DNA of 61,324 nt, counting the filler, from Fonticula-like sp. SCN 57-25 (Eukaryota): the NCBI GenBank assembly GCA_001724245.1. It is 11 parts of 11 records of this genome, joined end to end, with 100 filler letters (N's around TTAATTAATTAA, not from the genome) between each part and the next. Parts side by side here need not be neighbours in the genome. Positions count along the whole stretch, not along the records: positions 33,178 to 38,599 come from MEDX01000579.1; 10 more parts are not named here. One strand, written 5' to 3'. This document shows positions 19,165 to 58,629 of the stretch, piece by piece. A model generated the notes under the pieces. The model searched no databases, was not told where the DNA came from, and saw nothing but the letters and a program-made list of their open reading frames with translations. Within the stretch, counting starts at the first letter, position 1. The number at the start of each line of letters is the position of its first letter. Position numbers and translations under genes: made by a program.

Positions 19165-19196
19165 TGACGTAGATCGTGACGTCAGTAGTGACGTCA
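19165..19196. promoter_or_regulatory. Cluster of three CRE/ATF-like sites at 12-bp spacing
   Basis: TGACGTA(G) at 19165 and TGACGTCA at 19177 and 19189, in the divergent intergenic region between the lectin and NDR kinase genes. Confidence 0.45.
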
Positions 19197-19449
19197 GCAC
19201 TGTTGTGTGTCTCGAACGCGCGTCCACATCGCCAGAACGCTCCGCCCCTCGCCGCCGCCGAGGGTTTCATCTGTTTATTCTACACCGCCCCCTGAGCAGC
19301 GTGCTCCTATTTGGTTCCTGGTGGACGCGTATCAAGGTTAAGCGCGAAAGAGACTGTGATTTCACGAGGCTCTTTGTTGGCGATCAAGCACATTTTTTTT
19401 AGGTGATTGGAATTTTATACTTTTTGCCCACGAGTGGCGCCCGCAGATC

Positions 19450-21563
<2,114 letters not shown>

Positions 21564-21896
21564 TAATCATTCTCGTCGCCCGCCGCATTTCTCATATGTG
21601 TTTTCCCGCGTCTCTTTTGAATTATTTCCAATGCTTTCATCGCCGGCAATCGCGCACTTTTACAGGTGGCTGCACAACTGTTCGTTCCCCTCTGTGATTT
21701 TCGCGGCAAATTGCCAGAAAAAGATACTATTTTTGTCCTTGAGTTGTCCTTTTTCTCTGCTCTTTCCACCTTTTCATCCCCGCCGCCTTGGCACTCTGAA
21801 TGCATGGACCCAATACATACATTGATCATATTTTCATGCCTGCTGCGGCCCTACCTGGTATAAAAGCAAAGTACAATTGAAAATAATAACATTTGA

Positions 21897-22036
21897 CTAT
21901 GAGTCGGTTGAGTGCGAGTCGCCCTTGGTCTTGTTCTTGCGCGCCTCGAGCTCGGCGGGGAGCCGCGACTTTGGCCGGACAGTGTACTGGAAGAAAGTGG
22001 GGGCCTGGACGCGCACGCGGCGGGTGGTCTTGTCGG
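21897..22036 (-). CDS. C-terminal fragment of an unidentified protein
   Basis: GC-rich open frame from the contig edge: ..APTFFQYTVRPKSRLPAELEARKNKTKGDSHSTDS*. Confidence 0.4.
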
Positions 22037-22136
22037 NNNNNNNNNNNNNNNNNNNNNNNNNNNNNNNNNNNNNNNNNNNNTTAATTAATTAANNNNNNNN
22101 NNNNNNNNNNNNNNNNNNNNNNNNNNNNNNNNNNNN

Positions 22137-23670
22137 AAACCTCAAAGTGACAGAATTTTGGTCCCATCAAGTTCTTTACTCCCAGAACAACATGCCTGGC
22201 AAGACCACTTTTGAGAAACTTGAGGAAACTTATCCAAACCGTCTCCAACATGGGACAAAATATGAGAGCAACCCAACTACCTTACATACATTCAAAGAAG
22301 ACTTGGAACTATTGTACACAACGGTGCCCTTCTTCTCCCCATTTCCACTTATGGTTTCAAGTCGCGGTAGACCAGAGCAATGGAAAGTAGCTATGCAAAT
22401 GTACAAGGCACCAGCTTCCATTGGCACTCCATATATGACAATTGAGGAGCGTGCAGCGGTTTACGAGAGAATAAGCTCCCAACCGGATGTTGTTCAGATG
22501 GCCTTGCAAAAAAAGGTTTTCTCCATTTGTGACATCTTTTTCTCCCTCGATCAGACGTGCAAAACTCAGGAACAGTTGGCTATTGCAATGAGTGATTTGT
22601 TTTCTAAAATCTCAGTGGACCCACTAACCAAGGGAGAAGATGGAGAAACGTTGTTGCATTGCGCATGCCGAAACAACAAGACTGTCCGTAAAAAAAATAT
22701 TGACAGCACTGACAATTTGATCTTTATATAGTATTTTGTTACCTATCTGCTTTCAGAGATGAAAATCGACCTAAATGTTAGAAATGATCTTGGTGAAACA
22801 GCGCTTCACCTGTCCGCGGCATTGGGGCATACACAATTGGTTAATATTTTAGTCCGTTTTGGAGCTGATGTGTTAGCAAAAGATGGAAGAGGTTCTACTG
22901 TTTTTGAAATGTTGAATCTCAATGTGCAAGCTGCAATTCTTGGAAAACATATCTTAGGACAACGTGATGACAAGAATGCACTGAAGATTGCAAGACTGGG
23001 AAAGCCATTATTACGGCAGTTACTTTCCAGAATTGCTGCAAATGGGCTTACCAAACAATTTTTGCCACTATTTGACGAACTTGCTGAGCTATATCCCTCT
23101 TCAGAGAATGAATTTTGGTTTGAGAGAGATGGGTCTAATGGAAGGTCATTGGTAAGATGAATGAAAATATTTGTGTTATAATATGAGAATTAGTTTCATA
23201 CAGCTTGCCACTCTCTTAATGTCAACATGGTGGAAAGGTTACTGGATTGTAACTCTTTTTTCCCCTCCATAGATAGGGAAGGGCATGTACGAAGATTCTT
23301 GGAGACTCATCTGGATGAATCTAACAACACACCTATGCATCTCTGTTGCGAGAGGGTGTACCAGTCAGCAAACCGAGCCAAGATAATTAATGTATTGTTG
23401 AAATATAACACTAATTTGGATCTGCAGAATAAGGACGGTGATACTGTATTGCATCTGGCTGCGCGAAATATGTTTAAGAATGTGTGCAAATCTCTCATTG
23501 CAGCGCAAGCAAAGAGGGATATTTCGAATCACAATGGAGAGACTGCGCAGCAAATACTGAACCAGGTGGAACAAGAGCAAGAGGCAAAGAAGAGTGCAAA
23601 GCGAAAGACGAAAAGACAAGATAGCGTGGATTTGAAGCTTAACAAGAAACGACGAATAGAGGATAAGTAG
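22137..23670 (+). CDS. Ankyrin-repeat protein, 5'-truncated, 3 visible exons
   Basis: GETLLHCAC, GETALHLSA, NTPMHLCC and GDTVLHLAA repeats; basic NLS-like tail; TAG stop. Confidence 0.8.
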
Positions 23671-27418: not shown

Positions 27419-27657
27419 AACCCTCGAGGGGCGTGTGTTTGCATAAATGGAGGACAGCTACAAGTGCGTTGTCCCTTCTTTTTTTTTAATCTCAACAAGC
27501 AACTGACCATAATCAAAAGTAAAAGATGTGAAAGCCTCATTGAACCAAGAAGCAGAANNNNNNNNNNNNNNNNNNNNNNNNNNNNNNNNNNNNNNNNNNN
27601 NTTAATTAATTAANNNNNNNNNNNNNNNNNNNNNNNNNNNNNNNNNNNNNNNNNNNN

Positions 27658-29006
27658 GGCCTGCTTGAGCGTGTTCTGAGCATCGATGCTGCGCGCCGAT
27701 CCTATCCGTTCTCTCACGCGGGGCAGCAGCTCGCCGACACGCACGTCAGCCTTGAAGGACGCATGCTCGTCACCCCGCGTCGGCCCAATGTTGATAATCG
27801 CAATGGGCTTTCCTTGCTCGGCCGCAGCCTTGACAAACCGGTACGATGAAAACACCTGCAGCGAACTGCCGGCCACAAGTAACCCGTCGCACTGCAATCA
27901 GGGTTAGACATGTCTGCTTTCGGGTGATGCTAAAGAGAGTGGCACTGCGTACCTGGTCGATGGAGGCAAACGCCCGCTCGACAACCGGTTTCGCAACGTT
28001 CTCACCGAAAAACACCAGTTTCGGCTTTAGAATGCCATCGCACACTGTTATAACAGACCGACAGTGTCAGAGTCACGTCGTTACCGTGCGCTGCTGCATA
28101 CCTGGGCACGTCGGCACGTTGAATGATGCGAAATCCATGCCCTGCATTTCCACGTCGCCGTCCGGTCGCGCAGAGAACGGGTCGGTCTCGGGCGTCACCT
28201 TTGCACTGCGCAAACATTGTCAATTCAAAGCAAACGAAAAACAAATTAAACGACAACTGCCATAACAATGTTAGAGCAAGCACAAGGCTCTCGTGCAGTA
28301 AGCACTCAATAAACGATGACAATGTCGCACCAGAATTCCGGGTTGGAGTTTATCAAAAGGCTCTGCATGACAGCACGCGACAGCTCAAATGCACACTGTT
28401 GGCATTTAATGACGTGCTGGTTACCGTGCAATTCAATGACATTGTGCGATCCTGCCTTCTGATGCAGGACATCAACGTTCTGCGTGATGACGAGCTTCAC
28501 ATGGCCGGAGCCCTCAAGATGCGCGAGCGCGTGATGAGACGCGTTGGCGGGTACCACGGAAAAAGAGTCCCATGCGGCCATTGAGCGCGCCCAAAAGCGT
28601 TGGCGAGTCAGCGGATTGCGCATGAAATCGCCAAAAGTCACAGGCTTGTGGCCGACAGAGTACGAGCCATTCGGACTGCGGTAGTCTGGGATCCCAGACT
28701 CGGTGCTGTGGGAAAGCGTGGTGAGACTTTGCAGGAATAGGAGTCAATATGAGTGAATGTACCTGACACCTGCGCCTGTGATAACGACAAGATGCCTGCG
28801 GGTACTGCAGTAAACACGCGATTAGGACACATTGACAAGGCGAGCAGCAAGCACAAATTAATGAGGTAGTACCGGACAAAGTCGGACACTCGATCAACCA
28901 AGCTGTCAGATACACCGTCGCCTATTGGTGCCGAAAAAGCACCACGCGCCAATACAGACGCAGTCCGCGAGGCACGCGACACAGGTGACACTAGCAATGA
29001 TCGCAT
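27658..29006 (-). CDS. SIRT4: Class II sirtuin (SIRT4-like), multi-exon, 3'-truncated
   Basis: Spliced [69 protein letters not shown] and INIGPTRGD. Confidence 0.9.
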
Positions 29007-32241: not shown

Positions 32242-33177
32242 TATCATTTCAAGACCCCATAATTGCCCCCTCGTACACCTGCACGGGAATTTGTCCATTT
32301 CGCCGACTACTTTGCACGCGAGATAGAGACTGCCACCATTCCATCCATCTGTCACCATTGCACACTTATGTCATCATTCTTTCCTCTTCGTATATTCCTT
32401 TGTACCTGTCATCTCCTTGTCTTCGTTTTTGCTCTCTTGCCTCACGTTGAGCCCTACTCTGCAAGTCAATAAACATCTACAACCTCAGCAAGGTTTACCT
32501 CGTCCTTCATCACTGGCGTCCATCCGTGGCGATGCTGAACTATCTGAAGCATTTCATCCACATGATTTATATGCATCCGCTCGAAGATTTCGTTCCTTTC
32601 TGTTGCAGCCTTACTACAATTGGGATCGCTTTTACAAATGAATCAGTCACTGTAGCAGACTGCAATGTCGACAGAGTCAAAATCCAACGCGCTCACGCTG
32701 ATTTATGACCGTTGGCAGGATGAATCCACTCGTACACTTTTTCCTTTCTGGTTCATTAGGCATTGAGAATCGCAGAGCCCAACGAAGGAGAGAGTAGCCG
32801 TCAACCACAGTTGTGGGAATGTAATAAGATCCCCATCAAGGTGCATAGTAAGTGTTAAAAAGTATTATTTGGCATACACGACAACACAATCATGCATCGT
32901 ATCATCACGCAGAAACACAAAAACGCCCAACTTTAACTGTTGGACAAAACGAAACGATCAAAGGCACGATGACGCGTTAAACTGAGGCCGACGAATAATC
33001 ACTGGATGACGCAGCAGGACGAGTTGGCCTTCTTGGCTGTTGTATAGAAAGTCTTGGATTGCATGCTAAGGTCTTCGNNNNNNNNNNNNNNNNNNNNNNN
33101 NNNNNNNNNNNNNNNNNNNNNTTAATTAATTAANNNNNNNNNNNNNNNNNNNNNNNNNNNNNNNNNNNNNNNNNNNN

Positions 33178-33300
33178 ACGAACGCGGCAGCAGCAGTCTC
33201 AGCAACGACAATCGCGGCAACAACGAACGCGGCAGCAGCAGTCTCAGCAACGACAACAACGAACGCGGCAGCAGTAGTCTCAGCAGCAGCAATCGCGACG
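33178..33300 (+). repeat. Coding tandem repeat (ERGSSSLSN-like, three copies)
   Basis: ACGAACGCGGCAGCAG(C/T)AGTCTCAGCA occurs three times, in frame with the helicase. Confidence 0.8.
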
Positions 33301-36300
33301 AAAACAATTGCGGTAACGGAGTAATTGTTGCGAAAGCTTGTGACAGCTCGGCAGCTCTGGTTGCGAACGCCAAACGTCAACTGACAATTGTTCGCGAAGC
33401 TGTCTCCATGAAGTACTTTGGCCCTTCTTCACACTTGCGCGGTAAAGATCGTACCGAACTGCAAACACACTTTGAAGATTATGAAAAGGAGCTTGACAAA
33501 CGCAGTGCAAATGCTCATAGCGCCGATATTAAAGATGAAGAACTTGTGCGTTACCTTCGGCGCGAGGCAAGTCTGTTGTTGCGGGAGCATGCTGTTCGCT
33601 GGCATCGCAAAGATATTGAAGGCGCAGTGCTGAACAACGATATTGTCATCATTACTGGTGCCCCGGGCTGTGGCAAAAGCACACAGGTGCCCATCTTCGT
33701 CTCCGAACTTGACTGCATGAAAGACAAAATCGTGCTGTGCACGCAGCCGTACCGTATGGCGGCAGATGAGCTGTCAAAGTACGTGCGTAACATCTACAAC
33801 GGTTACTGTCATCGAGTTTATGAGCAGTTAAAGAGCGTAACTCAGCCGGAATATTGGGATCAACTTCGCGCCTGCAACGAAATCACGCTTGCTGGGGCTC
33901 AAGCTTTCGACGGGTCTTCAGGCGTGGCGCTTCTTGACACCGCATGTAAGGGTGCAAAAGACAAAACGCGCATTGCTTACGCGTCAGAGGTCAATGTAAT
34001 TAATGCGTACCGCATAGCGCGAGAAAACTTTACCCACAACAAGCTGGGTGACAAAAACGCCCTTGTACCGGACGCCTCTGTGGGCTGTCTGGTACTTGAT
34101 GAGGCACATACACGCTCAGTTGAAAGTGACATTTTGCTGTCACTCGTCCTTGAAGCTGTGTTTGCGGGCATCAAAGTTGTCATCATGTCAGCTACCATAA
34201 ACTCAGAAGCCCTTGAGGATTACTTCTTTCACTGGAACAATGACAACAAAAGCACCTCACTTCTTGTGAAGACAGTTCACATTACAGACAAGCGCAACTG
34301 GGTTGATGTTCAGTATAAGCCGCCTCTTGTGTCCTTTGCAGCACATACGCTTGCGAACTCGGTGGTGCACACTATTAGTGACTGTTTGCAAGGCAACCTC
34401 TGCGGACCGCTGACGGGCAACGTGCTTGTGTTCTTGCCAACAGACAATCATGTCGAGCAAGCAAAGAACCTGCTTGAGATATCTTTTTCTGCGCGTATAA
34501 TGCCCTACAACGCAAGTTTTAGGACTGTCACCTTGACTGACGCTGACGCCAGGTTAAAACCTGCGGAAAATCTCAGCGCAATTAATAATCACGCCAACAA
34601 ACACTGCGACTACCAGCGTGAAAACTGGCACAATGATGGTGGTGCGTTTGCAGCCCGAGGCCCAAAGTTTATCGTGTATCTGGCAACCGAGTTTGCTGAG
34701 ACATCATTAACAATTGACGGTGTCACTGTGGTCATCGACTCCGGACTGCGCTCGGCCAGCAACTTTAATCCTAAGACAAACCTTGTAGAAATCACGTTGA
34801 AGCCCATCTCGAAGGCCTCTGCCTAGCAGCGCATAGGACGTGCAGGTCGCACGCGTCCGGGACACTGTGTACGCCTATACAGCGAAGCTACGCTGAAGAA
34901 CTTTGCTGAATTCAACGTTCCAGCAGTCTTGTGTCAACCGCTGCAAAACACTGTGCTGTGCTTAGCGTCGTTACGCAAAGAGCCAGACGAATTTCAGTGG
35001 TTTGACGAGCCGCCACCGGAGTTGGTGCAAAAAGCGCGTGATGATCTCGTTGAACTTAAGGCCATTGACATAAAACCTTTCAAGGCAAAAGATTTGGGTA
35101 AGTTGAGTGTCGAAACCGGCTGTCCTATTAATCTCACTAAAGTTGTGGACGAAGGTCGCAGACTCAAGGGTGTTGAATTTGGCGTCGCTGTTGCTGCTGC
35201 TCTCCACTTTGTCCACATCTCCAATGCTTCTTGCGAATTAAATGTTGGTGCTGAAAGTACTGACAACTTCAGCAGCAGTCGTTCGTCGGTCAATGTTGAC
35301 GCACTTTGTGTGCGTGCAATCTTGACCTGGTGTAGGTTGCCGCAGTCGCAGAAGGCATCATTCAAAACGTCAAATCTAAAGCACTATTTTGAGCGTGCAT
35401 GTAACTGGTTTAATCACACGCTCGAGGCATTTTACCGTAAAATGCCAGATTGGCGCAAAGACTCCTGTCAGGCCGGCGACATTGTTGGTTTTGATGATGA
35501 TGACGTGTTTCGCTGCATTACAGCTGGATATTTTATGCATGCAATCTACGAGCTTAGCGACGATGAAGTTATGAAATCGTATCCTTACGCCCATTATGCG
35601 AGTACTCGCAGTGGCGAAATCCTTGTTGCCGCGAGCAATAAGTCACAAGTAGTACCTGCTCACAAAGAAAGAAAGTGGGCATTATATGTGTCTGCACACT
35701 CTTTCGACGGTCAGTGCATCATCACTGCGCCGCCTGTCCCTATCAAGCTTGAGTGGATTAAAAATCACAGCTAGGATTTCTACAAAAAGTGCGAAGAACT
35801 AGAGAAAACTACTGTTGGTATGAAAAGCACATTCTGCTCACTGCGTGTTGGCGAAGCAGACATACTGTTTCCAAAGGCGACTGATCGTGGAGACTTTGAA
35901 AAATCGTTTGAGTGTACCGTGGTTACAGGGGCAACTTTTGCAATTGTACGAGCACCTAAAGCTGATGACAAGGCTTCTCTCGCGTTTGCCCGGTTTGAAG
36001 AGCTGCGCAAGGCTATGCACAGGCGCAGTCTTGCCTAGAGTCGTCATATCGGCATAGGAGAAAAGCTGGTGGTGCTCTGCGACGACGGTTTTGAAGTGCA
36101 CGGAATTTTGCGCGATGGTGAATCTGCTACGGTCACTGTGCCGTACAATTCAAAGGTTGATGGTCTCGAGTACCAACACGACTCTATTGTACGCGACGCT
36201 TGTCTACCAATGGACTGTGACACATTGGTATTGAGTATCATATTGGTTGATGGCGACGAGTGTGAAGGTTACAGCAAAATGGCAAGGCTGATCTGCAAAT

Positions 36301-37784
36301 CCAAGGAGGATGCGGATCGCGTGCTTGCCAAACTGAGCAAGAATAGAACTGATGGTCGTCCTCTCACAATCGATGCCACAACGCCATCTGTTATAATCAT
36401 CCCGCTTAACAAAGAAAGCGCCTGTGGGATTGAAGTGACATCATATCCCAATGTAAGCGAGAAACATTGGACTTCGTCACGCGATTTCGAGCTGCCGCCT
36501 GCATTTGAGTCCGATAGCTTCAAGATACTTGCGCGAGCTGCTGATCGTGTCAAATCTAAGCAGTACGCGTTCATCGAAGGCAATGTTAATGTTTCTATCA
36601 AAGATTCCTCCAATTCTAAACATTAGTATGGGGGCGATCTCTCTCAGGTTTCATGCACGCTGCTCCAGATTGTACTACCAACTGCCGTAGGAAACTCGAT
36701 GTGGGATGAGATTCGGGATGATTTGCGTCAGTTTGCTGGGAATAATGTTTAGTACACTATTTTGCGTGCAGAGACAGCTGAAAAATGCATCGATAATTTC
36801 ACACTTCTTGTTGCGGTTTATGGCGATGTTGAAGAACGTGGCCAGAATGTTAAACTTGTCCAGAATTATTTCGGGAATAAGTTGACATATGTTTCCCATC
36901 GCATCAATCACGGCTTTCCATGCTTCAGCAGTTTTACTGGAAAGCGTCGCCTTGATCAGCTGTTCAGGAAGCATCGCTGCAAGAAAACGGCGGCGAGTAT
37001 GATCGAAGCCAATGATGCAAACAAGAACAAGCACATCACTCACGGGGAATGGAGGTCAACGCTGCCGGTTTGGGCTTGTGTTAACAACGAAAAAAACTCA
37101 ATTGATATGTATGGCAGTGACGAAAGTTGCGCTATGTTACGCAAAGATATCGAAAACTTTGAGGCGGAAATTGTTAAGTACACGAGGCGTTACATCGACC
37201 ATCGCATCAAGATCAAGACAACTGTTGCATATAAGAAAGTTAAAAAACTTATCCGAAACAGCGAGATTAAATTTTTTTGCTCTGAACCATCACATAATGG
37301 TAAAAGTTACATCGTCTACGTCTCAGGCTTCTTCAGACAGATTGCCAAGCTAAAGAAGATGCTGAGGCCGCATCTCGAAAAATCAAAGAAAATGGATTAC
37401 CGTACGCGCAACTCATGCTTTTGCTGTGGAGCTATTGTGTCCGACTCCAACCATGGCATGTGCTCAAGTGTGTGTGGCCACGTTGTTTGTTACATTTGCC
37501 TTTCTTCGAGTGTTATCAAAAAACTACGGCATAACGGCTGCAGGTGTTGCGCGCCGAAGTGCAACGAGAAGCTTCCGCTCAGCGACATCCCTTTCATCGC
37601 ATTCATCGCCGACGAACTTAAGGCAATTCTTAAATGCAGTTATGACAATTTTGAGTCTCAGCCTCAAGAAAAATGTGTCGTCAGGTGCCCCACAAAGGAT
37701 GGCTCCGAGCTGCAGCGCGCAGAGTCGCTTGCCAGCGCCCCAAGTATGTCGAAAGGGGAGGAGGAAGAAGAGGAGGACAAGTGA
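33180..37784 (+). CDS. DEAH-box RNA helicase with a C-terminal RING finger (DEAH11/12-like architecture); five in-frame TAG codons apparently read as sense; 5'-truncated
   Basis: One frame of 1534 codons with GAPGCGKST, LDEAH, MSAT, LVFLP, ATEFAETSLTIDGV and ASA*QRIGRAGR, then RING CFCC..CGHVVCYIC..C.APKC. TAG at 34824, 35772, 36036, 36624 and 36750; terminal TGA at 37782 with a second TGA at 37788. Confidence 0.9.
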
Positions 37785-38699
37785 CGTTGACCACGACGCG
37801 CAAGGTGCGACAGGAATGGAAAGTATCATCAGCGTGCTTAACTATATCACTTCGCCGCGGATTGGAAGAAAATCGCGCGATGATTGTGAGCTCCAATGAG
37901 AAGCAAACTACTAGCGCGTAACAACTGTTTGAAGCTGTGCGCGAATCCTGATCGGTTTACTAAGTTAGTTGTCTTAGTATTGCAGGAGATACGTCTTGTC
38001 AAGCCGCCTTGATTTCAATGTTTTTTTCCTGTCAAACTGCATATTATTAAAACTATGTGAAAAATTAGTTATTTTTGTCAATTTTATTGCACCGTTGTTT
38101 TCATCAATACATGACATATGTACTGAAATACATTTTACGATCCCCAACCGCAACTGATGGAGGGGCATGTTCCAAACGACTAAAACATCACTTGACGACA
38201 CATTAATGTCATCCTTCATGAGATTATTGTTGGCTATCATATTTAATCTCTAGTATTCACGCGAATATTGAACCCTCGCTGTCTTTTTCCTTGGTGAAGC
38301 TTGTGTATATGCTCGATTAGTGATTGTTCGCGATCCACCACAATTTTTTTCGTAAGAGTAACTATCATGTATTACGCAATCATGAAGAGTGACGTACGCT
38401 TTAAAACGCGCATATATCATATGAAGAACATATTAGTATCTTATGACAGAACTTAATTAAAATGGAGCGTTGTCTTGACCACAGCGCTTCGTACAAAGTA
38501 CATAACCCCTATGTAGCGTCAACTAAAAAACGCGATTTCGCGCTTTTTTTGCGACTTTGGCGCACTTTCGTAGAAGTTATCAAACTACGTGGTTTATTTN
38601 NNNNNNNNNNNNNNNNNNNNNNNNNNNNNNNNNNNNNNNNNNNTTAATTAATTAANNNNNNNNNNNNNNNNNNNNNNNNNNNNNNNNNNNNNNNNNNNN

Positions 38700-39320
38700 C
38701 GCCACGGGGCAGGACTGGCGCGCCATCGAGGCGGCCGCGCACGCGTACGTGGCCGTCAGGGGAGGCGGGGCGTACGGGCCGCTCGCGCGGTACCGCATCG
38801 AGCAGGAAGGTGGTGAAGAGTTTCTCTGCGGCGAGATTGAGCTGCCGCTCGCGGTCGGGACAAAGGGGGGGGCGCTGCATAGCAACCCGACGTACGCGTT
38901 TGCATTGGGGATTCTCGGAAATCCAGACTGCAAGACATTAGCAATGGTGCGCAAAAAGTTGAATGTGGTTCATGTGATGTGATGACGATGAAGATATATT
39001 GGTGTCTAGAATGAATGCTGTTGTGGTCTGTCTGAGTGCTTAAAGTGTGTTTCACGTGTCAATTATGTTCTCTTTACATTTTTCCCCCTTCTAACCATGC
39101 GCAGATTATGGCGTGCGTCGGCCTGGCTCAAAACTTTGCCGCGCTTCGTGCGCTGTCGCTCGAAGGCATCCAGCGCGGCCACATGGCGCTGCACGCGCGC
39201 AACATTGCCATCGCCGCCGGGTCGCCGCCCGAGCTCGTCGCGCAGGTGCAGGCTTTCCTTGTCGCGAGCAAGACGGTCAGCGTGCAGGCGGCAAAGGACT
39301 ACCTCGCGTCGTTAAAGTAA
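38700..39320 (+). CDS. Class II (bacterial-type) HMG-CoA reductase, C-terminal part, with a spliceosomal intron
   Basis: [26 protein letters not shown] and [29 protein letters not shown]; intron 38947-39104 (GTGCGC..CTAAC..CAG). Confidence 0.9.
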
Positions 39321-39476
39321 AGGTTTTGGGGCAGAGTCGGGTGAAAATCAATGTATTATAGCAATAAAGAGGCGACAGTGGCGCAGACGCGTCACTGAAG
39401 GTTTCTATCAAAAATGACACACAAATGTACACGAAATAGTTTAAAATAATGTGCTTTTGGTGATGGTCACGCATCC

Positions 39477-40205
39477 TCAAAGGACGCGCAGCTTGACGAT
39501 GGGCGATGCCGGGTTGATCCCCGAGAGCGGCCTGTGGTTCCGCTCCCTCAACGCGCGAAACATCTCTGCCTGTGAGTGGAAAGCGACCTTGTAGGCCGAC
39601 TTTTCCGGCGTGAGCGCGCTGACCGGGTAGCGATCCTTGAGCTTGAACCCGCGAAAGAAGCGCAGAATATCCTTGTAGTCGATCACGCCCGCGTCCCAGA
39701 GCACGAGCGCGTTCTCTGTCACGGCAACACTGCGGCTCGTCGTGCTCTGCAGGTTGATCGGGCTGACCGTCCACGCGTGCAGCCGCTGGCCAAAGAGGCT
39801 CCGCCCATGGAACGCCTTGACGACATCCCGCGCGGTCGCCTCAGAATCCAGCTCGACAAACCACCGCCCGGTCCGGTTGTAGTGCGGCGTCCGCGACTCG
39901 AGCAGCGAAAGTACTTGGCCGGGGAACTCGGCAGAGATCGCGCGGCGAACATCGATCGAGTTGCAAAACGGATTCACAAAGCGGATCGACACGACATTCG
40001 ATGCCCGGCGGTACAGCCGCTCGGGGACATCGGACTGCGGCATCGCGCGAGCGGGGGACGAGCTCGGCGGCGGATCAAGCTCGGCTTCATCCTCGTCGGG
40101 CTTCATCATGTGGTCGAGCGCCTGCGTCGGGTCCAGCGCGCCCGCTGCAGAGCTCAGCGCGCGGCTGCCGCATGCGCTGCGCGCGAGGCCCCGCCACACC
40201 AGCAT
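39477..40205 (-). CDS. Putative mitochondrial protein with two RRM-like folds
   Basis: Arg/Ser/Ala-rich presequence; TGRWFVELDSEATARDVVKAFHGRSLFG; AYKVAFHSQAEMFRALRERNH. Confidence 0.55.
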   Translation of the reverse strand: MLVWRGLARSACGSRALSSAAGALDPTQALDHMMKPDEDEAELDPPPSSSPARAMPQSDVPERLYRRASNVVSIRFVNPFCNSIDVRRAISAEFPGQVLSLLESRTPHYNRTGRWFVELDSEATARDVVKAFHGRSLFGQRLHAWTVSPINLQSTTSRSVAVTENALVLWDAGVIDYKDILRFFRGFKLKDRYPVSALTPEKSAYKVAFHSQAEMFRALRERNHRPLSGINPASPIVKLRVL

Positions 40206-40367
40206 CGTGACACGGGGGTGTGCTACCCATCCAAATCTACGGGGGATCGTTTATGGTCTACCCGGTGAGAGGCGGCTGTCAAGCTTTCACTGCTCTGCGT
40301 GCTTTTTATTGCTTTATTCTGCCGCCTTGTGCGCGCTGCAACAGTGCAGAAATACACAAAGAGTATA

Positions 40368-41365
40368 ATGTCACAGAGCATTATTGAAAAAGAGTTGTAT
40401 ATTCACGCCATACAACAACCATTGATGCGCGATTCAGCGCACTGCGAAATTATTACGATCGTCCCCCAGTCCGAGGGACCCAAGTGCATGTATTCTGGCA
40501 TCATATCTGAGGAGCACGGTTTCCTGGCACTGCCAAAGGATGTGTGGGAAGCGATGCCAGCGGACCGTTGCCCTTCGTCTCATCAGGCTGGCCTCTACCT
40601 GATGATCGGCAAGAACCGTGATGGGTACTTCACCAACGAGCTATTCATTGAGCACATGACGCGTGCCATGTTCATTCACGAGCATAACTGCCCAGGCAAA
40701 AAGGCCACATTCATGCTTGACTGGATCGGATGCCACCGCAAGGCAGACCCAAGCGCCATCGACGCGACCAAGATGAATGTTGGCGAGAACGGGAAGCAGC
40801 CTTTGTACGGGACGACGGTGTACGAAAGCGCGCAGGGGCCAGTGGAGCAATACATTGGGCGGAAGGGGATGCGCAGGGTGTTGGAAGAGAGGGCGTCGAC
40901 GTGATGGCGCTCAGGAGCAAGTCCGACATGGTGAACGCAATGCGAGCGATTGAGGATGTCGCAAACCATCCGCCTCCGCTCGTGGAAACCCTCGTGCAGG
41001 CTCGTGGACACAGAGTAGTCTGGATCCACAAGTATCACTGCGAGCTGAACCCGATCGAGCTCGCGTAAGGCATTGCCAAGCGGCTCTACCGGTACGCGAT
41101 GGGCTCGCTGCCAAACATGCGCGCGCTTGTGCCGCGAATGCTAGCGGCCATCGACGTGACCACCATTCGTCGATTCGCTCGGCGCTGTCGCGACTTTGCT
41201 CGCGCGTACCACAAGGAAGGTGAGCGTAGCCACATCCTCAGCTCTCAGCAGCTCGAGAGGGCGAGGAAAGTCTACAAGTCTCACAGGCGCATTTTACAGA
41301 GCACGCTCCATCGCGAGCTGAACGTAGGGCGGATGACGAGCTACCTGGCCAGACAATTGAGGTAA
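40368..41365 (+). pseudogene. Degenerate IS630/Tc1-type (DDE_3-like) transposase
   Basis: GKNRDGYFT, FMLD, KMNVGENGKQP, KGMRRVLEER and GHRVVWIHKYHCELNPIE. Frameshift near 40890; TAA at 41066-41068 where Trp is expected; no N-terminal DNA-binding region recognised. Confidence 0.72.
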
Positions 41366-41716
41366 TCGCCAACGACGGAGGTGACGACGGAAGCAAGGAG
41401 AAGACGATAACACCAGTGGTGACGCCTAGCAGATGGCAGGCTGCCAGAATGCTGCTTGTGCTTGCGTGATCATTTCCAGGTCCTCTCGCAGTGATCTGCT
41501 TGGTTGGATGAGACGTTTTCCATTTTCTCATCTGGTGAGACGATTTCTGCATTGGCTCACTTTGCTTTTTCAAGCCATAAAACCACGAAAAACACCCAAA
41601 AACACGTAAAATATGACTAAACACACAAAAACCATAATAAATACCCACTAAAACCAATGATAAAAAACGATAAAACTGCTTCATTTTTAATTTCTTTTCT
41701 GTACAAACACTTTTCC

Positions 41717-44105
41717 TCACCGCCTGTAGTACGCATCCTGCCCATACGCCCCCTGCTGCTGCTGCGGCTGCTGCTGCTGCGCGTACGCCTGCGCGTAATA
41801 CCCCCCGTACTGCTGGTCGTACTGCTGCGGGTACTGCTGCCCATACGCCGGCTGCCCATACGCCGGCTGCGCGTACCCACCCGCGTACATCTGCTGCGGC
41901 GGGTACGCCGGGTACTGCTGCTGCTGCTGAGTCTGCGTCGGCGGCGGCGGCAATGCTGGCGCGTCCGACGCGTGCCGCTTGAACCACTCTGCGACGTCGA
42001 AAAGACGCGGGAAAATGCGGTTGCTCATCGCGTGGCGAAATATGAAGCCCTTGGGGGTGACTGCGACGAATTCAAAGCGGGGGTTGTTTTCCGAGATTTG
42101 GTAGACGATTTCGAGGCTGCCGGTGCGCGCGCGGCTCAGGCAAAAGTAGTATGGGGCGCCGCCAGAAGCAGTTTCGGTGCGGCAGCGGTCCTCTGAAAAA
42201 GAAGAAAGGAAAGGTTAGAGTCATGTAGGGTGGAATCATAAGGATTACAAGGTGAAAAAGCGACAATCAAAAGAAAAAACAACTTAAAAAGGAGTCAAAA
42301 AGGACAATTTCCGTCACTTTAAAGTCAAGAAAAAAAGAAATTTGTTCCAATAATGTCAAAAAAGACACTTTCACCACAACACAATACACTTATCCTTTCT
42401 TCAACCCCCCATCAATTCTATTTTTCTCTTTCGTACCGAGCTGCTCACGTGACGCCACGACATACTTTCTAAACGCAAACGCATCCATATAATGATTCAC
42501 CAGCGGGTCAATGTACCTCGCCAGCAACTCATCCAAGTCATCAAACGACTCGTCCCCAATACGCGACTCGCCCTTAATACGCAACACCTTTCCAATCGTC
42601 CAAGGATGTTTTTTCTGCTCTTCAATAATGTCCACGTGGCGGTACACGTCATCAGATAGCTTGATGGTGGCGGTCAGCTGAGACGCGCCGCGCGTCGACG
42701 GCCGCACGAGGACCGCACCGGTGGCCTGCGAGGCGAGCTCTGATTGGGCCTCTTCCATGGAGCAGTTGCGGAAGCGGGGGTGCGAAAAGACGCGGGAAAC
42801 GAACGGGACGCGATCGGCGGCGGCGCGTTTGCGGCGAGCTAAGAAATGGGTAAGTAGGTGAAGTGAGAGGAAAGGGTGTGAAAAGGCCAGAAATGATCAT
42901 TTTTAGAGTCATTTTAAGAAAAAAAAGAGTCAAAATGACCCATTTAAGAATGAAAATGACCCACTTTAGACACTTTTTGAACACATTTTTGGAACCAAAT
43001 AACCCAATTTGAACACATTTTCCCTCTTTTTCGACCCTTTTCCCACAATATCTTTCCATTTCAACGCACCAGTTTCCTCGTCACGGAGTCTCTGAGCGTT
43101 GTTGTAGTAAGGGAGGTCGGCCAGACGGTCACCCGCACTCATCTTTACGCGGCTGATTCGCTCAGGGGACGCGTCCAACTTGACGCTGAAAATGTCTGCA
43201 TCAATCTAAAAGAACATTGTGTTAGAATAAAGTCGAAAAAGTGCGGAAAAGAACGGTGAAAAAAGCGATAAAAAGTGCCAAAAAAGTGCTAAAAACCACC
43301 AAAAACCATCACAAATCACCAAAAACCAAAACAATTCCCCAGAAAAACACCCACATAATTCCCCAAATTCGTACGTTTGTGACGCAAGCCTCGAGCATTG
43401 CACTCTCCTGCAGCACAACATTCTGCGGCACTCTATCCTCATAAATGCTTCCCGTGAGCCCGTTATCGAGCCTCACAAGGATAAAGTTTTTGCGCTGCTC
43501 GGGGCGCGGCAAGCCAACGACCGTTACGGGAACGATCGCGTCAAGGAAAAAGGACGTGCGTGATTCGCCAGTCAAAAGGTAAAACAGCTTCCATTTGCTG
43601 AAATTCATCATCAGAAATGGTCAGAAAAGGGTCAAAAGTAGATATAAAATAACACAAAAATAGCAAAAAAAAACACAAAAATAATGCGTACTCGATGCGG
43701 CGAAGGACGCGGGCGTCGTGGAAGGGCCACTTGAGCTCGGTGCGGATGTGCTCGAGGGTCGGGAGGCGTTCCCAGCGGTTGCGGCGGCGGAGTTCCTGGG
43801 CAAAGTGGGCAAGCGCAAGCTGGTCAAGCCTAGGAAAAGAGTTGGGAAGGTCAGAAAATTGATTGAAAAAAGGTTGAAAAAAGGTTGGAAAACATCGAAA
43901 AACATCAAAAACACATCAAAAAAGCAACGAAGAACACCCAAAAAGCATCAAAATCACACCAAAAACACCACTCACCATCCCACTAAATTCCACAACGTAC
44001 TTTGAGGTCTCGCCCTTGACTGACCACATGGTCTCCACTTGCGCCGACTGGTTCGCCTCATCCGGCCCCTGATCCAGCTCGAGCGCGTCCGTGACAATCT
44101 TCCTC
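41717..44105 (-). CDS. SPT6: Transcription elongation factor SPT6, C-terminal part (S1 and tandem SH2), multi-exon
   Basis: LFYLLTGES, VRLDNGLTGSI, VFSHPRFRN, VRPSTRGASQLTATIK, FDDLDELLARYIDP, SPKGFIF and WFKRH; Q/Y-rich tail. Confidence 0.87.
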
Positions 44106-44205
44106 NNNNNNNNNNNNNNNNNNNNNNNNNNNNNNNNNNNNNNNNNNNNTTAATTAATTAANNNNNNNNNNNNNNNNNNNNNNNNNNNNNNNNNNNNNNN
44201 NNNNN

Positions 44206-44841
44206 AGGTTGGTCTGCGGCGGCGATGCTGCACAAGGAGAGTTTGTGGTGGGTGGCTCGGACAGCGGCTCTTTCGGTTGTCCTGGCGCCGCTGGTACGCC
44301 GCATTTCTCGTTTTTGAAAGAGGATGCTGACTGTGGCATAGCTTGCTGTTGTGCGTGAGTATCTTCCTCAGATTGAGTGGGGCATCGTGAGCAGTTGCCT
44401 AATCATTATCGCTGCAACCCTTGCTGTTACAATTCTGATCTACCTCAATCTAAGGCGTTCAAGTGCGTTTTGCTTTGTGTTTATCAAATTGATTGACGTC
44501 GCGTGTTTTCAGCATGGGCGAGTAATACATTCATTGTGATGCCCGCTGATCAGGCCGCCGCTTTCGGGCGCTCTAGCGCCATATCCGTGTCGGTCTTGTC
44601 GCACGACATGGCTGAAGTTTGGCGCGTGCTCGTGTGGCTTGCCGTCGGTGCGGTAATAGACATTCTCGTTCTGCACTTTACGGGAAGCGCGGTTGCGCTG
44701 GTGCTGCACACGGGGGAGTGCGCGCTTCTCGCGTCCAGCAGCTCGCTCTTTGAGGCGCATTTGCCGCACCTCTTTGGATCGGACGATGAGGAGATTCGCG
44801 CAACTGTACCGCGCCCGTGGCCCTCCCGGATATTTTTGTAA
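44206..44841 (+). CDS. Unidentified multi-pass membrane protein, C-terminal part
   Basis: Hydrophobic exons linked by GT-AG introns; TAA stop; convergent with HIS2. Confidence 0.4.
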
Positions 44842-44899
44842 TCTAGCATTTTTCAACATAGACATTTTATTATACTTGAGAACGGCCAAACTGCGGCCT

Positions 44900-45896
44900 C
44901 TATGCTTTCGGCAAGGCATCCCAAAAAGCGTGATTTGTGATATCGTCGTACTGCGCAAGCTGCAATCCTTGCCCGTCTCTGCTCCGCCTCAAGGCATAGA
45001 CAGTGTTCACGCCGTGTTCGCGGAGGTAGTCGCGCAGCTCGCGGTACTTTACAGCGACGTGCTCGACGCGGTGGCTATCGTCCGAAAGGGTAAAGCGGCA
45101 GTTCGACCGCATGAGAACGGCCAGCGTATCTGCCATGGGGTACGGTCCGGGAAGCCCCTTGCGAAGCCCGGAAGAGTTCAGTTCTACGAGAGCGCCGATC
45201 TCGGCCACAAACTTGGCGTTGCGCTCGATCTTTTGGAGCACTTTAGCGCTCCACGTGCTCGACGGCCGAAACAGGCGGATAAGGTCAAAATGGCCAACGA
45301 CGTTGGGCCTGACGGCTTGAAGCATGTCGTACTGAAGATCAAAGTACGCGCAGAAGAGCGACTCGAGGTCGCCGCCGAGGTTCGCGAGCGCACGATCAAA
45401 GAGCTCTGGTGAAAAGTCGATCGGGATCCCGTTGACGTGGTGCACCGAACCAACGAGGTAGTCAAGCTGGAACTGATCTCTTACGAGCTTCGTTTGCGAA
45501 AGACTCTCGCCTACCAACCGGTCGGTGAGCCGCGCCAGATCAACTGCGCCACCGCACCATAAATGGATTCGGTTTCGCCACCGACTAGGATCTCGATCGA
45601 GTCCGCATATTTAGCCTGCAATGCTCGAGCAAGCTTGACATACTCGGCAAACGTCTCACTGAGCGCTGCCGGAGTAACGCCTTCAGCCACCTGATCGATT
45701 ACGTGTCAGCGATGGCGCGGTCAAGATCGAGACGCGCCTCCTCCTCATAAAGGTCTTCTGTTCGATACCGCGGCATGTGCTCCGACAGGCCAAACACCTC
45801 CATGTTCCTCTCTATCGCCGACCGTACCATGCTCTCGAGATCCCCCGACGCATGCTTGCAAAACTGGCCGCTGTGGCTGTGTAACGAAATGGGCAT
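44900..45896 (-). CDS. HIS2: PHP-family histidinol-phosphatase (HisJ/His2), multi-exon
   Basis: SLHSHSGQFCKHA, GLSEHMPR, DYLVGSVHHV, VVGHFDLIR, ELNSSGLRKG and LSDDSH. Confidence 0.92.
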
Positions 45897-46083
45897 CGCT
45901 CAAATGCTGACACACTGTTGGTGCATCAACAATGAACTCTAGCTATGAACGTGATGCGCAGCACTCTACACAAATACCACGAAAAAGTTGTATGGCCATA
46001 GTAACTTGCGTTAGGCTAATGAAAAAAAGCTGCAGGATAATTGTTTATTGCTACATGAACCATTGTACACTTGATCAATCCCT

Positions 46084-48414
46084 TCACATGCGCTGGCGCT
46101 TGCCCACGCCCTGAGGTGCGGGCCGCGCGTTGGCCGTAGCCTTGCGCTTCACGTTGGCCACCAGCGAAGCCAGTGACCGGTCGCGGGGCTCGTTGTCGCC
46201 AGTGGAAACAGGCACGTCCTCCTGCGCCCCAGAGCTCTTCTGGCGCCGCTGGCGCTCCTCGACGACCGACTGCATCGCCTTGGTCTTTTTGAACTGCGGC
46301 GCGCTGGGGTCGAGCGCGAACAGATGGCTATCGTACAGCGCAGAGAAACGCTCATCCTTGAGGTTGATCTTAAAGTCGTCCTTGGCGGCGTCCGCAAGGC
46401 GCTCGCGGTCCTTGGCCTTGATCTTCTTGCCCTCGACGCGCTGCGCCTTCATGATATCGCGCATGTTAAAGTGCTTGGCACCGGCAGCAATGCCCGCAGA
46501 AGAAGAATCGCCAGTGTCGAGCGTGAGCAGCTCCAGCTCGGCCTTCTTGACCGCATCCTCCTCGGAGGGACGCTTGGACTTGCCCTTGCCAGACTTTTCC
46601 TTCTTCTTTGACTCGCCCTTGGGCCGCGCCGCATCAACAAAGTCGTCACCGAGCTCTGCGCGGATCATGGCCTCCTCCTCCGAGTCCATGTCGCCGCCGC
46701 GCTCGCCTTCCTCGCCGGCGGCCGCCTCGCGAGCAGCGCGGCGCTTCTCGCGCCTCTTGTCCTTCTTGCGCTCGAGGTATTGCTCCCAAATAGTCTGGTC
46801 CGCCGTACGCTGCACCCATCGACCGTTAGACAATCAATCAGCAAACAAGGTAAACGTACATTCTTCTTCTTCTTCTCCTTGACAAGCTTGTCGGCGACGC
46901 CCGAAAGGCCGGCCGTAAAGGTGATTTCCATCTCCTCTTCGGGCTCCTCCTTTGCGGAAATCTCAGACAGCAGCGAGCGGTAGGCGTCGCGCTTCTTTGA
47001 CTTTAGCTTGACCTCCTCGCCGTCCTCGTCGCTGTCCTGGACCGTCTCGATGGGGCCGTCGTCGTCGTCGTCGTCAGAGTCGTCCGAATTCGCCAAGTAC
47101 GCCTCAAAGTCCATCTTTTTGATATCCTCCTTGTTGAACTTGCGCTTGGTCACCTGGACGCGTTCGTGGTCCTCGGCCTCCCACGTGAGCTCCGGGTTGG
47201 AGTGGCGGAGCGCCTTGGTCGTGAACACGGCCGGCTGGTAGTTTTGCGGCAGGTGCGAGGCGGTATCGCGCGGCTCGTCGTCAAACGTAACATCGTCCGG
47301 GATAAAGCGCAAATCAATCAGGTTCCCCGAGGACTCAAACTCGAGGCCGTTGCACTCGTCGTAGAGGTGCTTGGCGGTCTCGACGCTGTTGCATTCAACG
47401 ACCGCGTAGTAGTACCGAAGACGCTCGAGCTGGTACTTGCGGATGCGGGCCAGCTCAACGGGCCCGAGCTTGGAGGTCTCCACTTCGCCAACCATGCGCG
47501 ACACGTGGTGCTTCTGGGCGCGCTTCAGCTCCTTCATGCGAGACTCCTCCTTGCTGATCGCGTCCAGCTCGGCCGCGTCGTCCGTCACGGTGGCACCAAA
47601 GACTTCCTTCGGAGGGCCGTACTTTTCCTCGTGCTCGAGGCGCTCCTTGCCAAACTCGGAAGGGTACACGGTAACAAGCTTGACCGAGCCACCAGTAGGG
47701 CAGAATGACGAAAGCAGCACATAAAGGTTGACCGCACGGACATTGTCCCAGTCCATGTTGACCAGGGCAAGCCGCTTGGTGGCGTCTCCAAGAGGCACGT
47801 CAACGCGGTCCTATAACAAAATGTCTAAGTAAAAGAAAAATGGCATTTCCAAAGCGCACCAGCAAAGCGTCCTCCTCGGCTGTGATCATGTTCTCCTCGT
47901 CGGCCTCCTCCTCGTCGAAGTCATCGTCCGTTTCGTCCGACTCTTCCAGGCCCTCACCACGCGCACGATCAATAAACGACGCAGGCATGCCAGAACCCTC
48001 CTCCTCTTCCTCTTCCTCCTCCTCGTCGCTGTCCTGCTGGGCATCGCTTTCGACTTCCTCGCTCTCCCACTCGCCGGCGTCATCCTCATCGGCGACCTGC
48101 TCCTCTTCCTCGGCATCGCTGTCCTCCTCCTCGTCATCGTCGTCAAGACGGTAAAGACGCTTCATGTCCTCCGAGCGCTTGCTCTGCAGCGGGCGGCCAT
48201 ACTTGTCGACCCGCGGCGCGGCCTTGTCGCCCGCAAAGTCGGCGTCCTCAAACATGCTCTTGAAGCGCTCGTCCACCTTCACCTTCATGTCCTTCTTTGG
48301 TGCACGCTGAAAACGCGGGTCCTTGTGCACGCGCGCAAACCGCGAGTCCTGGACCACCTCAGTCTGCTGAGGCTGCGGCCTTTTGGGCTTGACATCCTTA
48401 CCCGGGCGACCCAT
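46084..48414 (-). CDS. ESF1: Pre-rRNA-processing protein ESF1, 3 exons
   Basis: DSRFARVHKDPRF, TKRLALVNMDWDNV, VYPSEFGKERL, YQLERLRYYYAVVEC and the NUC153 motif DERFSALY..FALDPS. Confidence 0.93.
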
Positions 48415-48712
48415 GGTGCGGTGCTCCTGCGCTCGCGTGGCCGATGCTGACTGCGCAAGTACGTGAAAATCACAGGTGAAATCGCATGTGATTGATGAGC
48501 CACTTCGCTGATTTTTCGCTGATTTTCTGATTCCCTCCTGACGCGCTGCTGATTAATCGTTTCTCGCTCCTGCCAGGTTTTCGACGACGCGTGGGTCCCC
48601 TCTCCAGAGTGTCCTTGCCGCCGACGCCACGCTAGAAGCCGAGCTCGATATTCTTTTACCCGCGATAGTTTAACGTATTACCCCTTTATCTGGTGGCTTT
48701 CTTGCCGCATCA

Positions 48713-49601
48713 ATGGATAACCGTACGCCTCTCAGACCATTTCCTTGCAATGAGGTGGACGTCATCTAACGCTCTCGTGCTTTGCACTGGTCTTTCGCGC
48801 GCTTTTCTTGTTAATTCTCGCTCTCTTGATCTTTCTTTTGTTTTATGACACAGAGGAGCACTCTGAGGGACATGGCGGCAACGAGCCTACTGTCGTGCCT
48901 GCCTCGCAGAAGAGCAGCTTCATCAGCTTTATGAAGACGGTACGTGCTTGCGTCACTCATTCGGATTGTGTCATGCGTACTGACTGCTGCTTGCAAGATT
49001 GCGACTACGTCGTCGGACCTGCATACGCTGTCGTGCCCCGCGTTCCTCTTGGAGGGCCAGTCCACCCTTGAACTGTTCCGCTCGTTTGCTGAGGCCCCCG
49101 CACCGTTCCTTAAGCTGGCCACCACCACCGACGAGGGCGGTACGCAGCCGGAATCCCCGCTTTCGCCCGCGAATGCTAACCTATCGGGCCGTAGAGCGCA
49201 TGCTTGCTGTTGTGGCGTGGTGGATCAACAACCAATGGCACAGCTACGGGTCGCCGTTCTCGGGCGGCCGCGCAGTCAAGAAGCCCTACAACCCTATCCT
49301 CGGTGAGCAGTTTACGTGCCACTGGGAGGACCCGGAGGGCGGCAAGACTGAGCTGCTGGCCGAGCAGGGTGCGTCAATGTTTTATTTTGTTTGCAAGGAA
49401 GCTCACCTTTGCGATAGTGTCGCATCACCCGCCGATGAGCGCCTGCTTTGTCAAGAACGAAAAGCTCCAAATTTACCTCAACTCGTCCATCGTCTCCAAG
49501 ACGCGCTTCCGCGGCACCGCCATCAAGGTGGAGAACTTGGGCCACACAACGGTACGGCTGCCCAAGTACAAGGAGGAGTACCGCATGACCAACCCCGACG
49601 T
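48713..49601 (+). CDS. Short oxysterol-binding protein (Kes1/Osh4-like), 3'-truncated
   Basis: DLHTLSCPAFLL, KKPYNPILGEQF and the signature AEQ|VSHHPP. Confidence 0.9.
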
Positions 49602-49701
49602 NNNNNNNNNNNNNNNNNNNNNNNNNNNNNNNNNNNNNNNNNNNNTTAATTAATTAANNNNNNNNNNNNNNNNNNNNNNNNNNNNNNNNNNNNNNNNNNN
49701 N

Positions 49702-50120
49702 ACGCTGCCGAATGTAAAGGAAATGATGATTAGCAGGCACTGGTAAAAGTCCCAGTAGTCTGGCGTTTCGCCGACCAATGCAGTGGCCATGCGCGTCGTC
49801 AATCCCGTCATGTGTGTCACAGCGCGCGCATACGACGACGTCAAAAACGACGCGTTAATATAGCCCGCCACCATCGTCAAGCCCACGCCGCCAATCAGCA
49901 CGGGCACGAAATCACGCCGGCCGCGAATCGATGGCGGCGCAGAGGGCGCCGTCGACGCCTCTGTAAGTACGGGCGTCACCGCCGGCGACGGCGGCGTGGT
50001 AGGAACCGGGCTCGCGTCCTCCTTGCCCGACGAGATCGATTTCATCTCCATTTCTTCCGACGTCATCTTTGCGGCAGGGCGGGGTGATCCCAGCGGGGAC
50101 TCCGTTCGCGTGCGAGGCAT
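49702..50120 (-). CDS. YoaK/DUF1275-family membrane protein, N-terminal part
   Basis: LTMVAGYINA..VTHMTGLTT..ISFTFGS pattern. Confidence 0.72.
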
Positions 50121-50610
50121 CTCCCTCTAACAAAAAGTCCAAAGCGCGCAAATTCTCCGCTCAAAGCACCAAACGCCAAGCGACGCGCTAGACAAAGACC
50201 GCAGCGGCCCCAATAAAGAACAATGCGAAGCAACGCGCCCCTTTTCCTCCTAGGCCGCCTTTGCTTTGCTTGGCTGCGCTGCAGGTGACCAACTTATCGA
50301 ATGACTTTAAAACTTGGTCTGAGCCCACGTGGACGCTTATCGGGCCAATCAGGTGCGTGCATTTCCAGAGTTTGGCAGATCGAAGCATTGTAGGAATCGC
50401 GTCGAGGCTTCCGCGAAGCGGGTCGCGCGGTGGGCTGAAAATAATGCATTTTTCGCCAAAAAGGGCAATAAAGCCATCTGGCTTTCATTATTCATGTTAT
50501 GGCATTGCTTTCTGTCTGAAAAGAGGCGCTGTATTTGTAAACGCCATTTCCTTATGATCGAGCAAGCAGAAATTACATATAAAATCTCCGGCAAAGGCAG
50601 AGTCGGTGCA

Positions 50611-58598: not shown

Positions 58599-58629
<31 letters not shown>

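Follow-up and report, generated by a model that had tools for sequence, protein, structure and literature searches.

Probable reading of UAG as an amino acid in a helicase gene of an uncultured, apparently eukaryote-like organism

Introduction

Nuclear genetic code changes that separate UAG from UAA are rare. In the code of NCBI table 6 both codons specify glutamine, as in many ciliates, hexamitid diplomonads, some green algae and the aphelid Amoeboaphelidium. UAG alone is reassigned in Iotanema spirale (to glutamine) and in the rhizarian exLh (to leucine) (PMC5304391), and in phyllopharyngean ciliates to leucine or glutamine (PMC11687900). In the peritrich code (NCBI table 30), UAA and UAG both mean glutamate (PMC11687900, PMC10553269), and in the code of Blastocrithidia UAR (UAA and UAG) means glutamate and UGA tryptophan, with UAA serving as stop (PMC12153298). 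In the uncultured ciliate Oligohymenophorea sp. PL0344, whose genome has a guanine plus cytosine (GC) content of 30.6%, UAG is glutamate, UAA is lysine and UGA is the sole stop (PMC10553269). In the sections of the literature that describe these codes, UAG-only codes assign glutamine or leucine, and UAG as glutamate comes together with UAA as glutamate or lysine (PMC11687900, PMC5304391, PMC10553269, PMC13685798, PMC12153298); no UAG-only reassignment to glutamate appears in those sections (PMC11687900, PMC5304391, PMC10553269, PMC12153298). Here we describe a DEAH-type helicase gene with five in-frame TAG codons, which are probably read as sense codons. The gene lies on contig 7 (MEDX01000579.1, positions 33178-38599) of a stretch of 61,324 nucleotides (nt), hereafter the window, that joins 11 contigs of the assembly deposited as Fonticula-like sp. 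SCN 57-25 (GCA_001724245.1).

The helicase gene fits no known code fully. As in Iotanema spirale, exLh and the phyllopharyngeans, UAG is the only internal stop codon seen, but those lineages keep UAA as their dominant stop, whereas the helicase gene ends with UGA. Internal UAG and a UGA terminator are shared with table 6 lineages, and the gene is free of introns, as genes of diplomonads are; unlike in table 6, however, no UAA is seen and glutamine is disfavoured as the meaning of UAG. The code of PL0344 is similar in that UAG most likely means glutamate and that the gene ends at a UGA followed by a second in-frame UGA, but the helicase has no in-frame UAA in 1458 codons, its contig has a GC content of 46.6%, and nothing on the contig shows ciliate hallmarks such as telomeres or tiny introns. 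The favoured glutamate and the UGA terminator are also those of table 30. Peritrichs are typical of activated sludge, and the helicase contig recurs in wastewater and bioreactor sequencing runs; the GC-balanced composition and the lack of UAA set it apart from the peritrich code. Blastocrithidia (table 31) likewise reads UAG as glutamate, but the helicase gene has no in-frame UGA and terminates at that codon.

Results

The coding frame of the helicase gene runs on the plus strand from 33408 to 37784, comprising 1458 codons and a TGA, and codes for a DEAH-type helicase that carries a long extension at its C terminus. It is the sole gene on the 5422-nt contig (GC 0.466), with non-coding flanks of 230 nt and 815 nt. 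The frame is open upstream as far as the contig end at 33178. The ATG at 33408 is the probable start because a relative, P0002, begins level with it; the length of 1534 codons given in the first-pass annotation, which had been counted from the first bases of the contig, was therefore reduced to 1458. Translation of 33180-37790 gave in-frame stops at 34824, 35772, 36036, 36624 and 36750 (all TAG), then at 37782 and 37788 (both TGA). The 1458 codons thus included five TAG but neither TAA nor TGA, and each of the five alternative frames of the same stretch contained 40-116 stops. The first-pass annotation had described one shared frame broken by single TAGs only, free of TAA, TGA and frameshifts, with a gene end of TGA-CGT-TGA. 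The translation bore out this description, and the tandem stop was located at 37782-37790 (plus strand). Codon use in the gene was balanced, with a GC content at third codon positions (GC3) of 0.50.

The protein matched the Pfam families Helicase_C and DEAD. Its best solved match was Prp43/DHX15 (E 1e-42 to 3e-43) over the core, residues 225-566, and one solved RNA helicase aligned as far as residue 793. The motif set I, II, III and VI of superfamily 2 (SF2) DEAH/RHA helicases was complete: motif I (P-loop) GAPGCGKST at 33657-33683, motif II DEAH at 34098-34109, motif III SAT, and motif VI QRIGRAGR at 34827-34850, all on the plus strand. Motif VI lies downstream of the first TAG, which immediately precedes it as the first-pass annotation had noted. 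With Prp43/DHX15-type DEAH/RHA helicases the protein has in common the RecA-like core and these motifs; it differs from them in about 900 family-specific C-terminal residues, and no Pfam match to an HA2 or OB domain was found in it. The extension ends in a Cys/His cluster, C-x2-C-x15-C-x-H-x2-C-x2-C-x15-C-x4-C (residues 1337-1385, 37416-37562, plus strand), which is RING-like by pattern only. The cysteines and histidine of the cluster were invariant in both relatives that reach that far (three of three sequences with the helicase itself), and their spacing fits C3HC4. No Pfam match to RING was obtained for the cluster, and RING was absent from the Foldseek matches of the C-terminal 343 residues, which were weak KH- or ACT-like matches with a query template modelling (TM) score of at most 0.23 (mean predicted local distance difference test, pLDDT, of the model 60).

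Among 1.84 billion representative proteins, the close matches (E 5e-76 or better) were three relatives and the gene's own five fragments. The relatives were P0002 (1506 amino acids, 38% identity, full-length), P0003 (1119 amino acids, 42% identity) and P0087 (781 amino acids, 38% identity); a further relative, P0353, has 503 amino acids and 62% identity. The five fragments, produced under the standard code, stand in public protein collections as P0084, P0085, P0103, P0086 and P0089. The helicase gene is also present on a longer contig, of 17.8 kb. The helicase family is tiny.

All six segments between and around the TAGs were colinear with the relatives, with best E values of 0, 4e-54, 1e-20, 1e-19, 1e-8 and 3e-58, and at the TAGs the coordinates of the relatives moved on by roughly one residue. 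The alignments had neither gap nor insertion at TAG 1-3; these are therefore codons and not in-frame introns, unlike the TAGs of the other contigs (see below). The helicase motifs were intact, and so was the Cys/His cluster, which lies beyond all five TAGs. If substitutions were neutral, 40-47% of the nonsense hits in this codon set would be expected to be TAG, which gives a probability of 1-2% that five stops out of five are TAG. In the same model five stops would imply about 120-200 substitutions, and at the indel rate of the flank 7-12 frameshifts would be expected to accompany them; the gene has none (P = 8e-4 to 8e-6).

Sequencing run X4 held a variant about 92% identical to the contig alongside the identical form. 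Three long coding contigs of this variant carried 172 substitutions and one 3-nt insertion, and its 3'-flank contig carried 51 substitutions and five indels (3, 1, 13, 1 and 3 nt), of which three were not multiples of three. The deficit of indels in the coding part relative to the 3' flank was significant for the long coding contigs (Fisher p = 0.0037). Overall, the chance of such a pattern under neutral decay is well below 1e-3. Substitutions between the variants were symmetrical (C>T 34, T>C 37, G>A 37, A>G 29). Hypermutation of the repeat-induced point mutation (RIP) type was ruled out by its indices, with TpA/ApT of 0.72 and (CpA+TpG)/(ApC+GpT) of 1.26. Together, these results exclude a hypermutation producing TAG specifically. 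The divergence of the X4 variant ranged from 1.7% to 13% by segment (33329-36100 and 37858-38480), and this mosaic pattern suggests strains or paralogues.

The strongest competing explanation is a young pseudogene, in which five TAGs arose by chance in an intron-free helicase of a standard-code organism, perhaps the relative of fungi represented by other contigs of the window. Such a helicase might be derived from a transposon or virus, or be a retro-copy lying between repeats. The helicase contig is indeed multi-copy at either end, placing the gene between repeats in a repeat-rich genome. In run X3, the 5' end (33178-33358) had about 7-fold the depth of the gene, and the final 96 nt (38504-38599) are part of a high-depth repeat, seen in two runs as a 1738-nt contig of depth 186 and 321, compared with about 5 for the gene. 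The pseudogene explanation is also favoured by a diverged partial copy in X3 (record 4), which differs by about 13%, by a GC3 of 0.50, lower than the 0.66-0.79 of genes on the other contigs, by the lack of introns where the other contigs are rich in them, by the absence of sense TAGs from those contigs, and by 1-nt deletions in one low-depth X4 contig. However, mixed stops, frameshifts, lost motifs and a neutral indel pattern were all absent from the gene. The chance of five TAGs out of five, the chance of no frameshift after 120-200 substitutions (at most 8e-4), the intact motifs and distal cluster, the indel deficit and the lack of directional mutation all argue against decay. Moreover, the contig is not tied to the main cluster of the other contigs by tetranucleotide composition (correlation r of 0.15-0.32, against 0.51-0.70 within the cluster). 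We therefore consider a pseudogene quite unlikely, and the claim of the first-pass annotation that UAG stands for an amino acid remains the best explanation of a gene that is intact, colinear and unshifted, contains one kind of stop, and recurs in several runs.

The residue for which UAG stands was examined with four relatives. TAG 1 (codon 473, 34824-34826, plus strand as are all five), directly before motif VI, faces E, K and T in the relatives and Q in Prp43. TAG 2 (codon 789, 35772-35774) faces E, S and P; TAG 3 (codon 877, 36036-36038) faces E twice; TAG 4 (codon 1073, 36624-36626) faces A and H in a stretch that aligns poorly; and TAG 5 (codon 1115, 36750-36752) faces E in the sole relative aligned there. 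Glutamate thus occurred five times, K, T, S, P, A and H once each, and glutamine and tryptophan in none of the 11 aligned residues. Log-odds were calculated from the same alignment, by tallying what the relatives have where this protein has a given residue type. At the TAG columns they were 7.3 for E, 4.1 for K, 0.75 for D, -2.3 for Q, -17.9 for L and -19.5 for W. We also drew random sets of five positions with a known residue from this alignment. The observed margin of E over Q was reached by 0 of 500 true-Gln sets, compared with 21% of the Glu, 16% of the Asp and 1.4% of the Lys sets. For E, Q and K, the correct residue is recovered from five sites in only about 40-50% of cases.

Glutamine, named as the likely meaning in the first-pass annotation, was thus disfavoured, as are the meanings found in the known UAG-only lineages, leucine fitting very badly and glutamine poorly. 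In other DEAH proteins the residue before QR is often glutamine: among the 309 of 338 with a recognisable motif VI, a set rich in Prp43 orthologues, it was Q in 114, E in 55, N in 31, K in 24 and D in 20. At this site (TAG 1), P0353 shows E. The open reading frame (ORF) of P0353, called at 503 amino acids on a 172-kb contig, stops where P0001, P0002 and P0003 keep a glutamate (WFxxP.E), which hints that, in its organism, a stop codon may stand within the gene in place of a Glu codon. Judged from these alignments, the residue encoded by UAG is most likely glutamate; lysine or glutamine would be less likely, and leucine, tyrosine or tryptophan very unlikely.

The poor fit of tryptophan bears on a further explanation, gene-specific recoding in a standard-code organism, either by editing of the messenger RNA (mRNA), for example adenosine-to-inosine (A-to-I) editing of UAG to UGG, or by programmed read-through. 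A-to-I editing of UAG to UGG (Trp) has been described for some filamentous fungi, UAG is the triplet favoured by this editing and is the only stop codon affected here, and other contigs of the window come from a relative of fungi, as judged by the match of an ESF1 gene to Fonticula alba. Tryptophan, however, fits the five columns worst of all and occurs in no relative. The bases 3' of TAG 1-5 are C, G, A, T and T, sharing no common read-through context; five read-throughs in one mRNA would leave almost no full-length protein; and tetranucleotide composition does not tie the helicase contig to the relative of fungi. Recoding of this single gene is a less probable explanation than decay, and we regard it as improbable.

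The fate of UAA was considered from codon usage. The absence of TAA among the five reassigned codons has p = 0.13 under the CAA:CAG usage of the gene (11:22) and p = 0.013 under its GAA:GAG usage (55:40), the latter setting the gene apart from table 30, in which UAA also means glutamate. The only terminator seen, in this one gene, is TGA with a second in-frame TGA two codons on, and tandem UGAs are enriched where UGA is the only stop (PMC10553269). Absent UAA and tandem UGA in one gene hint at a code in which UAG alone is reassigned and UGA alone terminates; on the evidence of this gene, UAG-only reassignment is plausible.

The distribution of the family speaks to whether the contig could be non-eukaryotic, that is, from a bacterium, archaeon, phage or giant virus with a sense TAG of the phage type (Gln) or read as pyrrolysine. 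Bacteria also have DEAH/HrpA-type helicases, the gene is free of introns, and TAG-recoded phages are known from metagenomes. On the other hand, no relative was found in two scans of genomes from 185,579 prokaryote species or in three scans of IMG/VR viruses. A single gene in 5.4 kb with non-coding flanks of 230 and 815 nt, and a RING-like Cys/His cluster in its protein, also speak against such an origin, as do promoter-like sites (9, against 6.6 in shuffled sequence) and terminator-like sites (8, against 6.5) at near-background numbers. A non-eukaryotic source thus has little chance of being correct.

Sequence words of the helicase contig occurred in bioreactor and wastewater runs of six studies. 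In run X3, from another study, contigs of 2634 and 2469 nt spanned TAG 1, 2, 4 and 5 with 0 differences; record 13 of X4 spanned TAG 3 and record 19 of run X5 spanned TAG 5, also with 0 differences. Identical pieces of sequence were present in three runs beyond X3. The metagenome contig L001, which may share the sample of X3, was identical over 2673 nt, taking in TAG 1 and 2. Apart from this contig, the metagenome scan yielded just two DEAH genes of generic type, L002 and L003. Run X6 is labelled RNA-Seq but was flagged 'probably DNA', and its identical pieces were not used as evidence. All five TAGs, whose confirmation the first-pass annotation had proposed, were thus found unchanged in contigs of other runs, and they are not assembly errors. 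Although the depth of the gene was low in every run examined, about 4-6, an artefact of sequencing or assembly, like a chimeric consensus, is hardly credible in view of this identity in another study's run, in three further runs and in the metagenome contig.

Outside the gene, the helicase contig has few features. The 5' leader contains a 36-nt tandem repeat of 1.9 copies (33219-33285, plus strand). The 3' flank (37785-38599, plus strand) is AT-rich and has no convincing ORF; a minus-strand ORF at 37977-38432 was rejected as not gene-like.

Inspection of the runs of N showed that the window is made of 11 separate contigs, 5.4-6.1 kb each, glued by artificial spacers. The spacers follow one design, 44 N, the 12-mer TTAATTAATTAA and 44 N, an artificial six-frame stop that repeats about every 5.5 kb. 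They lie at 5440-5539, 10979-11078, 16514-16613, 22037-22136, 27558-27657, 33078-33177, 38600-38699, 44106-44205, 49602-49701 and 55085-55184, the sixth and seventh bounding the helicase contig on either side. The window being a chain of joined contigs, the other contigs are not neighbours of the helicase gene, and readings of neighbourhood across a spacer are invalid. The last contig, of 6140 nt, is out of the otherwise descending size order and has one ambiguous base (N) at 60571.

The other ten contigs carry intron-bearing eukaryotic genes, coding for tuberin, ESF1, GH47, GST, Zn2Cys6-PAS, BTB-BACK, ankyrin, sirtuin, PP2C and dsRBD proteins. Contigs 1, 2, 3, 4, 8, 10 and 11 (1-5439, 5540-10978, 11079-16513, 16614-22036, 38700-44105, 49702-55084 and 55185-61324; GC 0.50-0.61), with the tuberin, GH47, GST, Zn2Cys6-PAS, PP2C and dsRBD genes, form a cluster with tetranucleotide correlations of 0.51-0.70 among them. 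Contig 9 (44206-49601) correlates with this GC-rich cluster at r 0.33-0.49, and the helicase contig with every other contig at only 0.15-0.32. The ESF1 gene on contig 9 (about 46063-48414, minus strand) matched Fonticula alba best (48% identity, E 7e-90), with fungi next. This match points to an uncultured relative of fungi, possibly a nucleariid or fonticulid-like amoeba, among the contigs of the window. About 650 ESF1 codons aligned to homologues contained no internal stop, for which P(0) = 0.11 even at the TAG rate of the helicase.

In-frame introns that mimic a sense TAG and lack other stops were found at 59150-59200 (minus strand, 51 nt), 22684-22731 (plus strand, 48 nt) and 16122-16175 (minus strand, 54 nt). 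Two of them open with GTACGC and one with GTCCGT; each contains a branch site resembling CTGAY/CTCAC and closes with YAG. Two genes on the other contigs end in TAA. Long frames open for TGA were rejected as evidence of TGA as a sense codon there; they are artefacts that stem from GC-rich composition and from changes of frame between exons. Contig 6 has a sirtuin-like gene of at least three exons (27658-28743, minus strand) and no convincing ORF elsewhere. Use of the other ten contigs as same-genome controls was rejected on the correlations given above; with their different composition, they neither support nor refute the code of the organism of the helicase contig.

Discussion

We consider it probable, with a probability of roughly 0.7, that UAG is a sense codon in the organism from which the helicase contig comes. 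The contig (33178-38599) would derive from an uncultured organism, eukaryote-like and living in wastewater or bioreactor communities, whose ordinary translation machinery would decode UAG as an amino acid and terminate at UGA. The helicase gene would be functional and intron-free, with 1458 codons, a family-specific C-terminal half and a RING-like Cys/His end. At its five UAGs, which fall on polar and weakly conserved positions, UAG would act as an ordinary sense codon, presumably read by a cognate transfer RNA (tRNA) with the anticodon CUA in the presence of a release factor that has lost the ability to recognise UAG; neither the tRNA nor the release factor is encoded on this contig.

Several observations weigh against a sense UAG. 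The case comes from a single gene, and is a good lead rather than a demonstrated code. ARAGORN detected 0 tRNA genes across the whole window, so none for tRNA(CUA), and Rfam gave 0 matches; nor was a gene for eRF1 or another release factor seen there. On the other contigs, no Pfam match needed read-through in any of ten TAG-containing ORFs, and the three in-frame TAGs inspected fall inside or at the end of introns of 48-54 nt; if the helicase contig shared that genome, UAG as a sense codon there would be doubtful. Two relatives, P0002 (1506 amino acids) and P0087 (781 amino acids), were called as uninterrupted proteins, so that their hosts either need no reassignment or rarely use the codon. 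The choice of residue depends on 11 aligned residues, which are not independent of one another and come from relatives with 38-62% identity. In run X4, a short contig of depth 2.9 has two 1-nt deletions in the coding part, and the indel contrast between coding part and flank becomes p = 0.043 when two short low-depth contigs are added.

A more specific proposal is that the organism represents an undescribed lineage of wastewater protists that has few introns and a balanced GC content, unlike typical AT-rich ciliates; in this lineage UAG alone would have come to mean glutamate, with UGA still serving as terminator. This combination is tentative, and in our estimate rather unlikely to hold in full.

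Nuclear codes that part UAG from UAA put to the test a proposed mechanistic link between the two codons (PMC11687900). If the organism is indeed a further lineage of this kind, it would be an independent case, of particular value for its balanced GC content, its UGA terminator and the probable glutamate meaning of UAG, and it would speak against AT pressure being the sole cause of these changes. Since gene callers using the standard code split the helicase gene into five fragments, the whole proteome of the organism is probably mis-annotated wherever it has been assembled.

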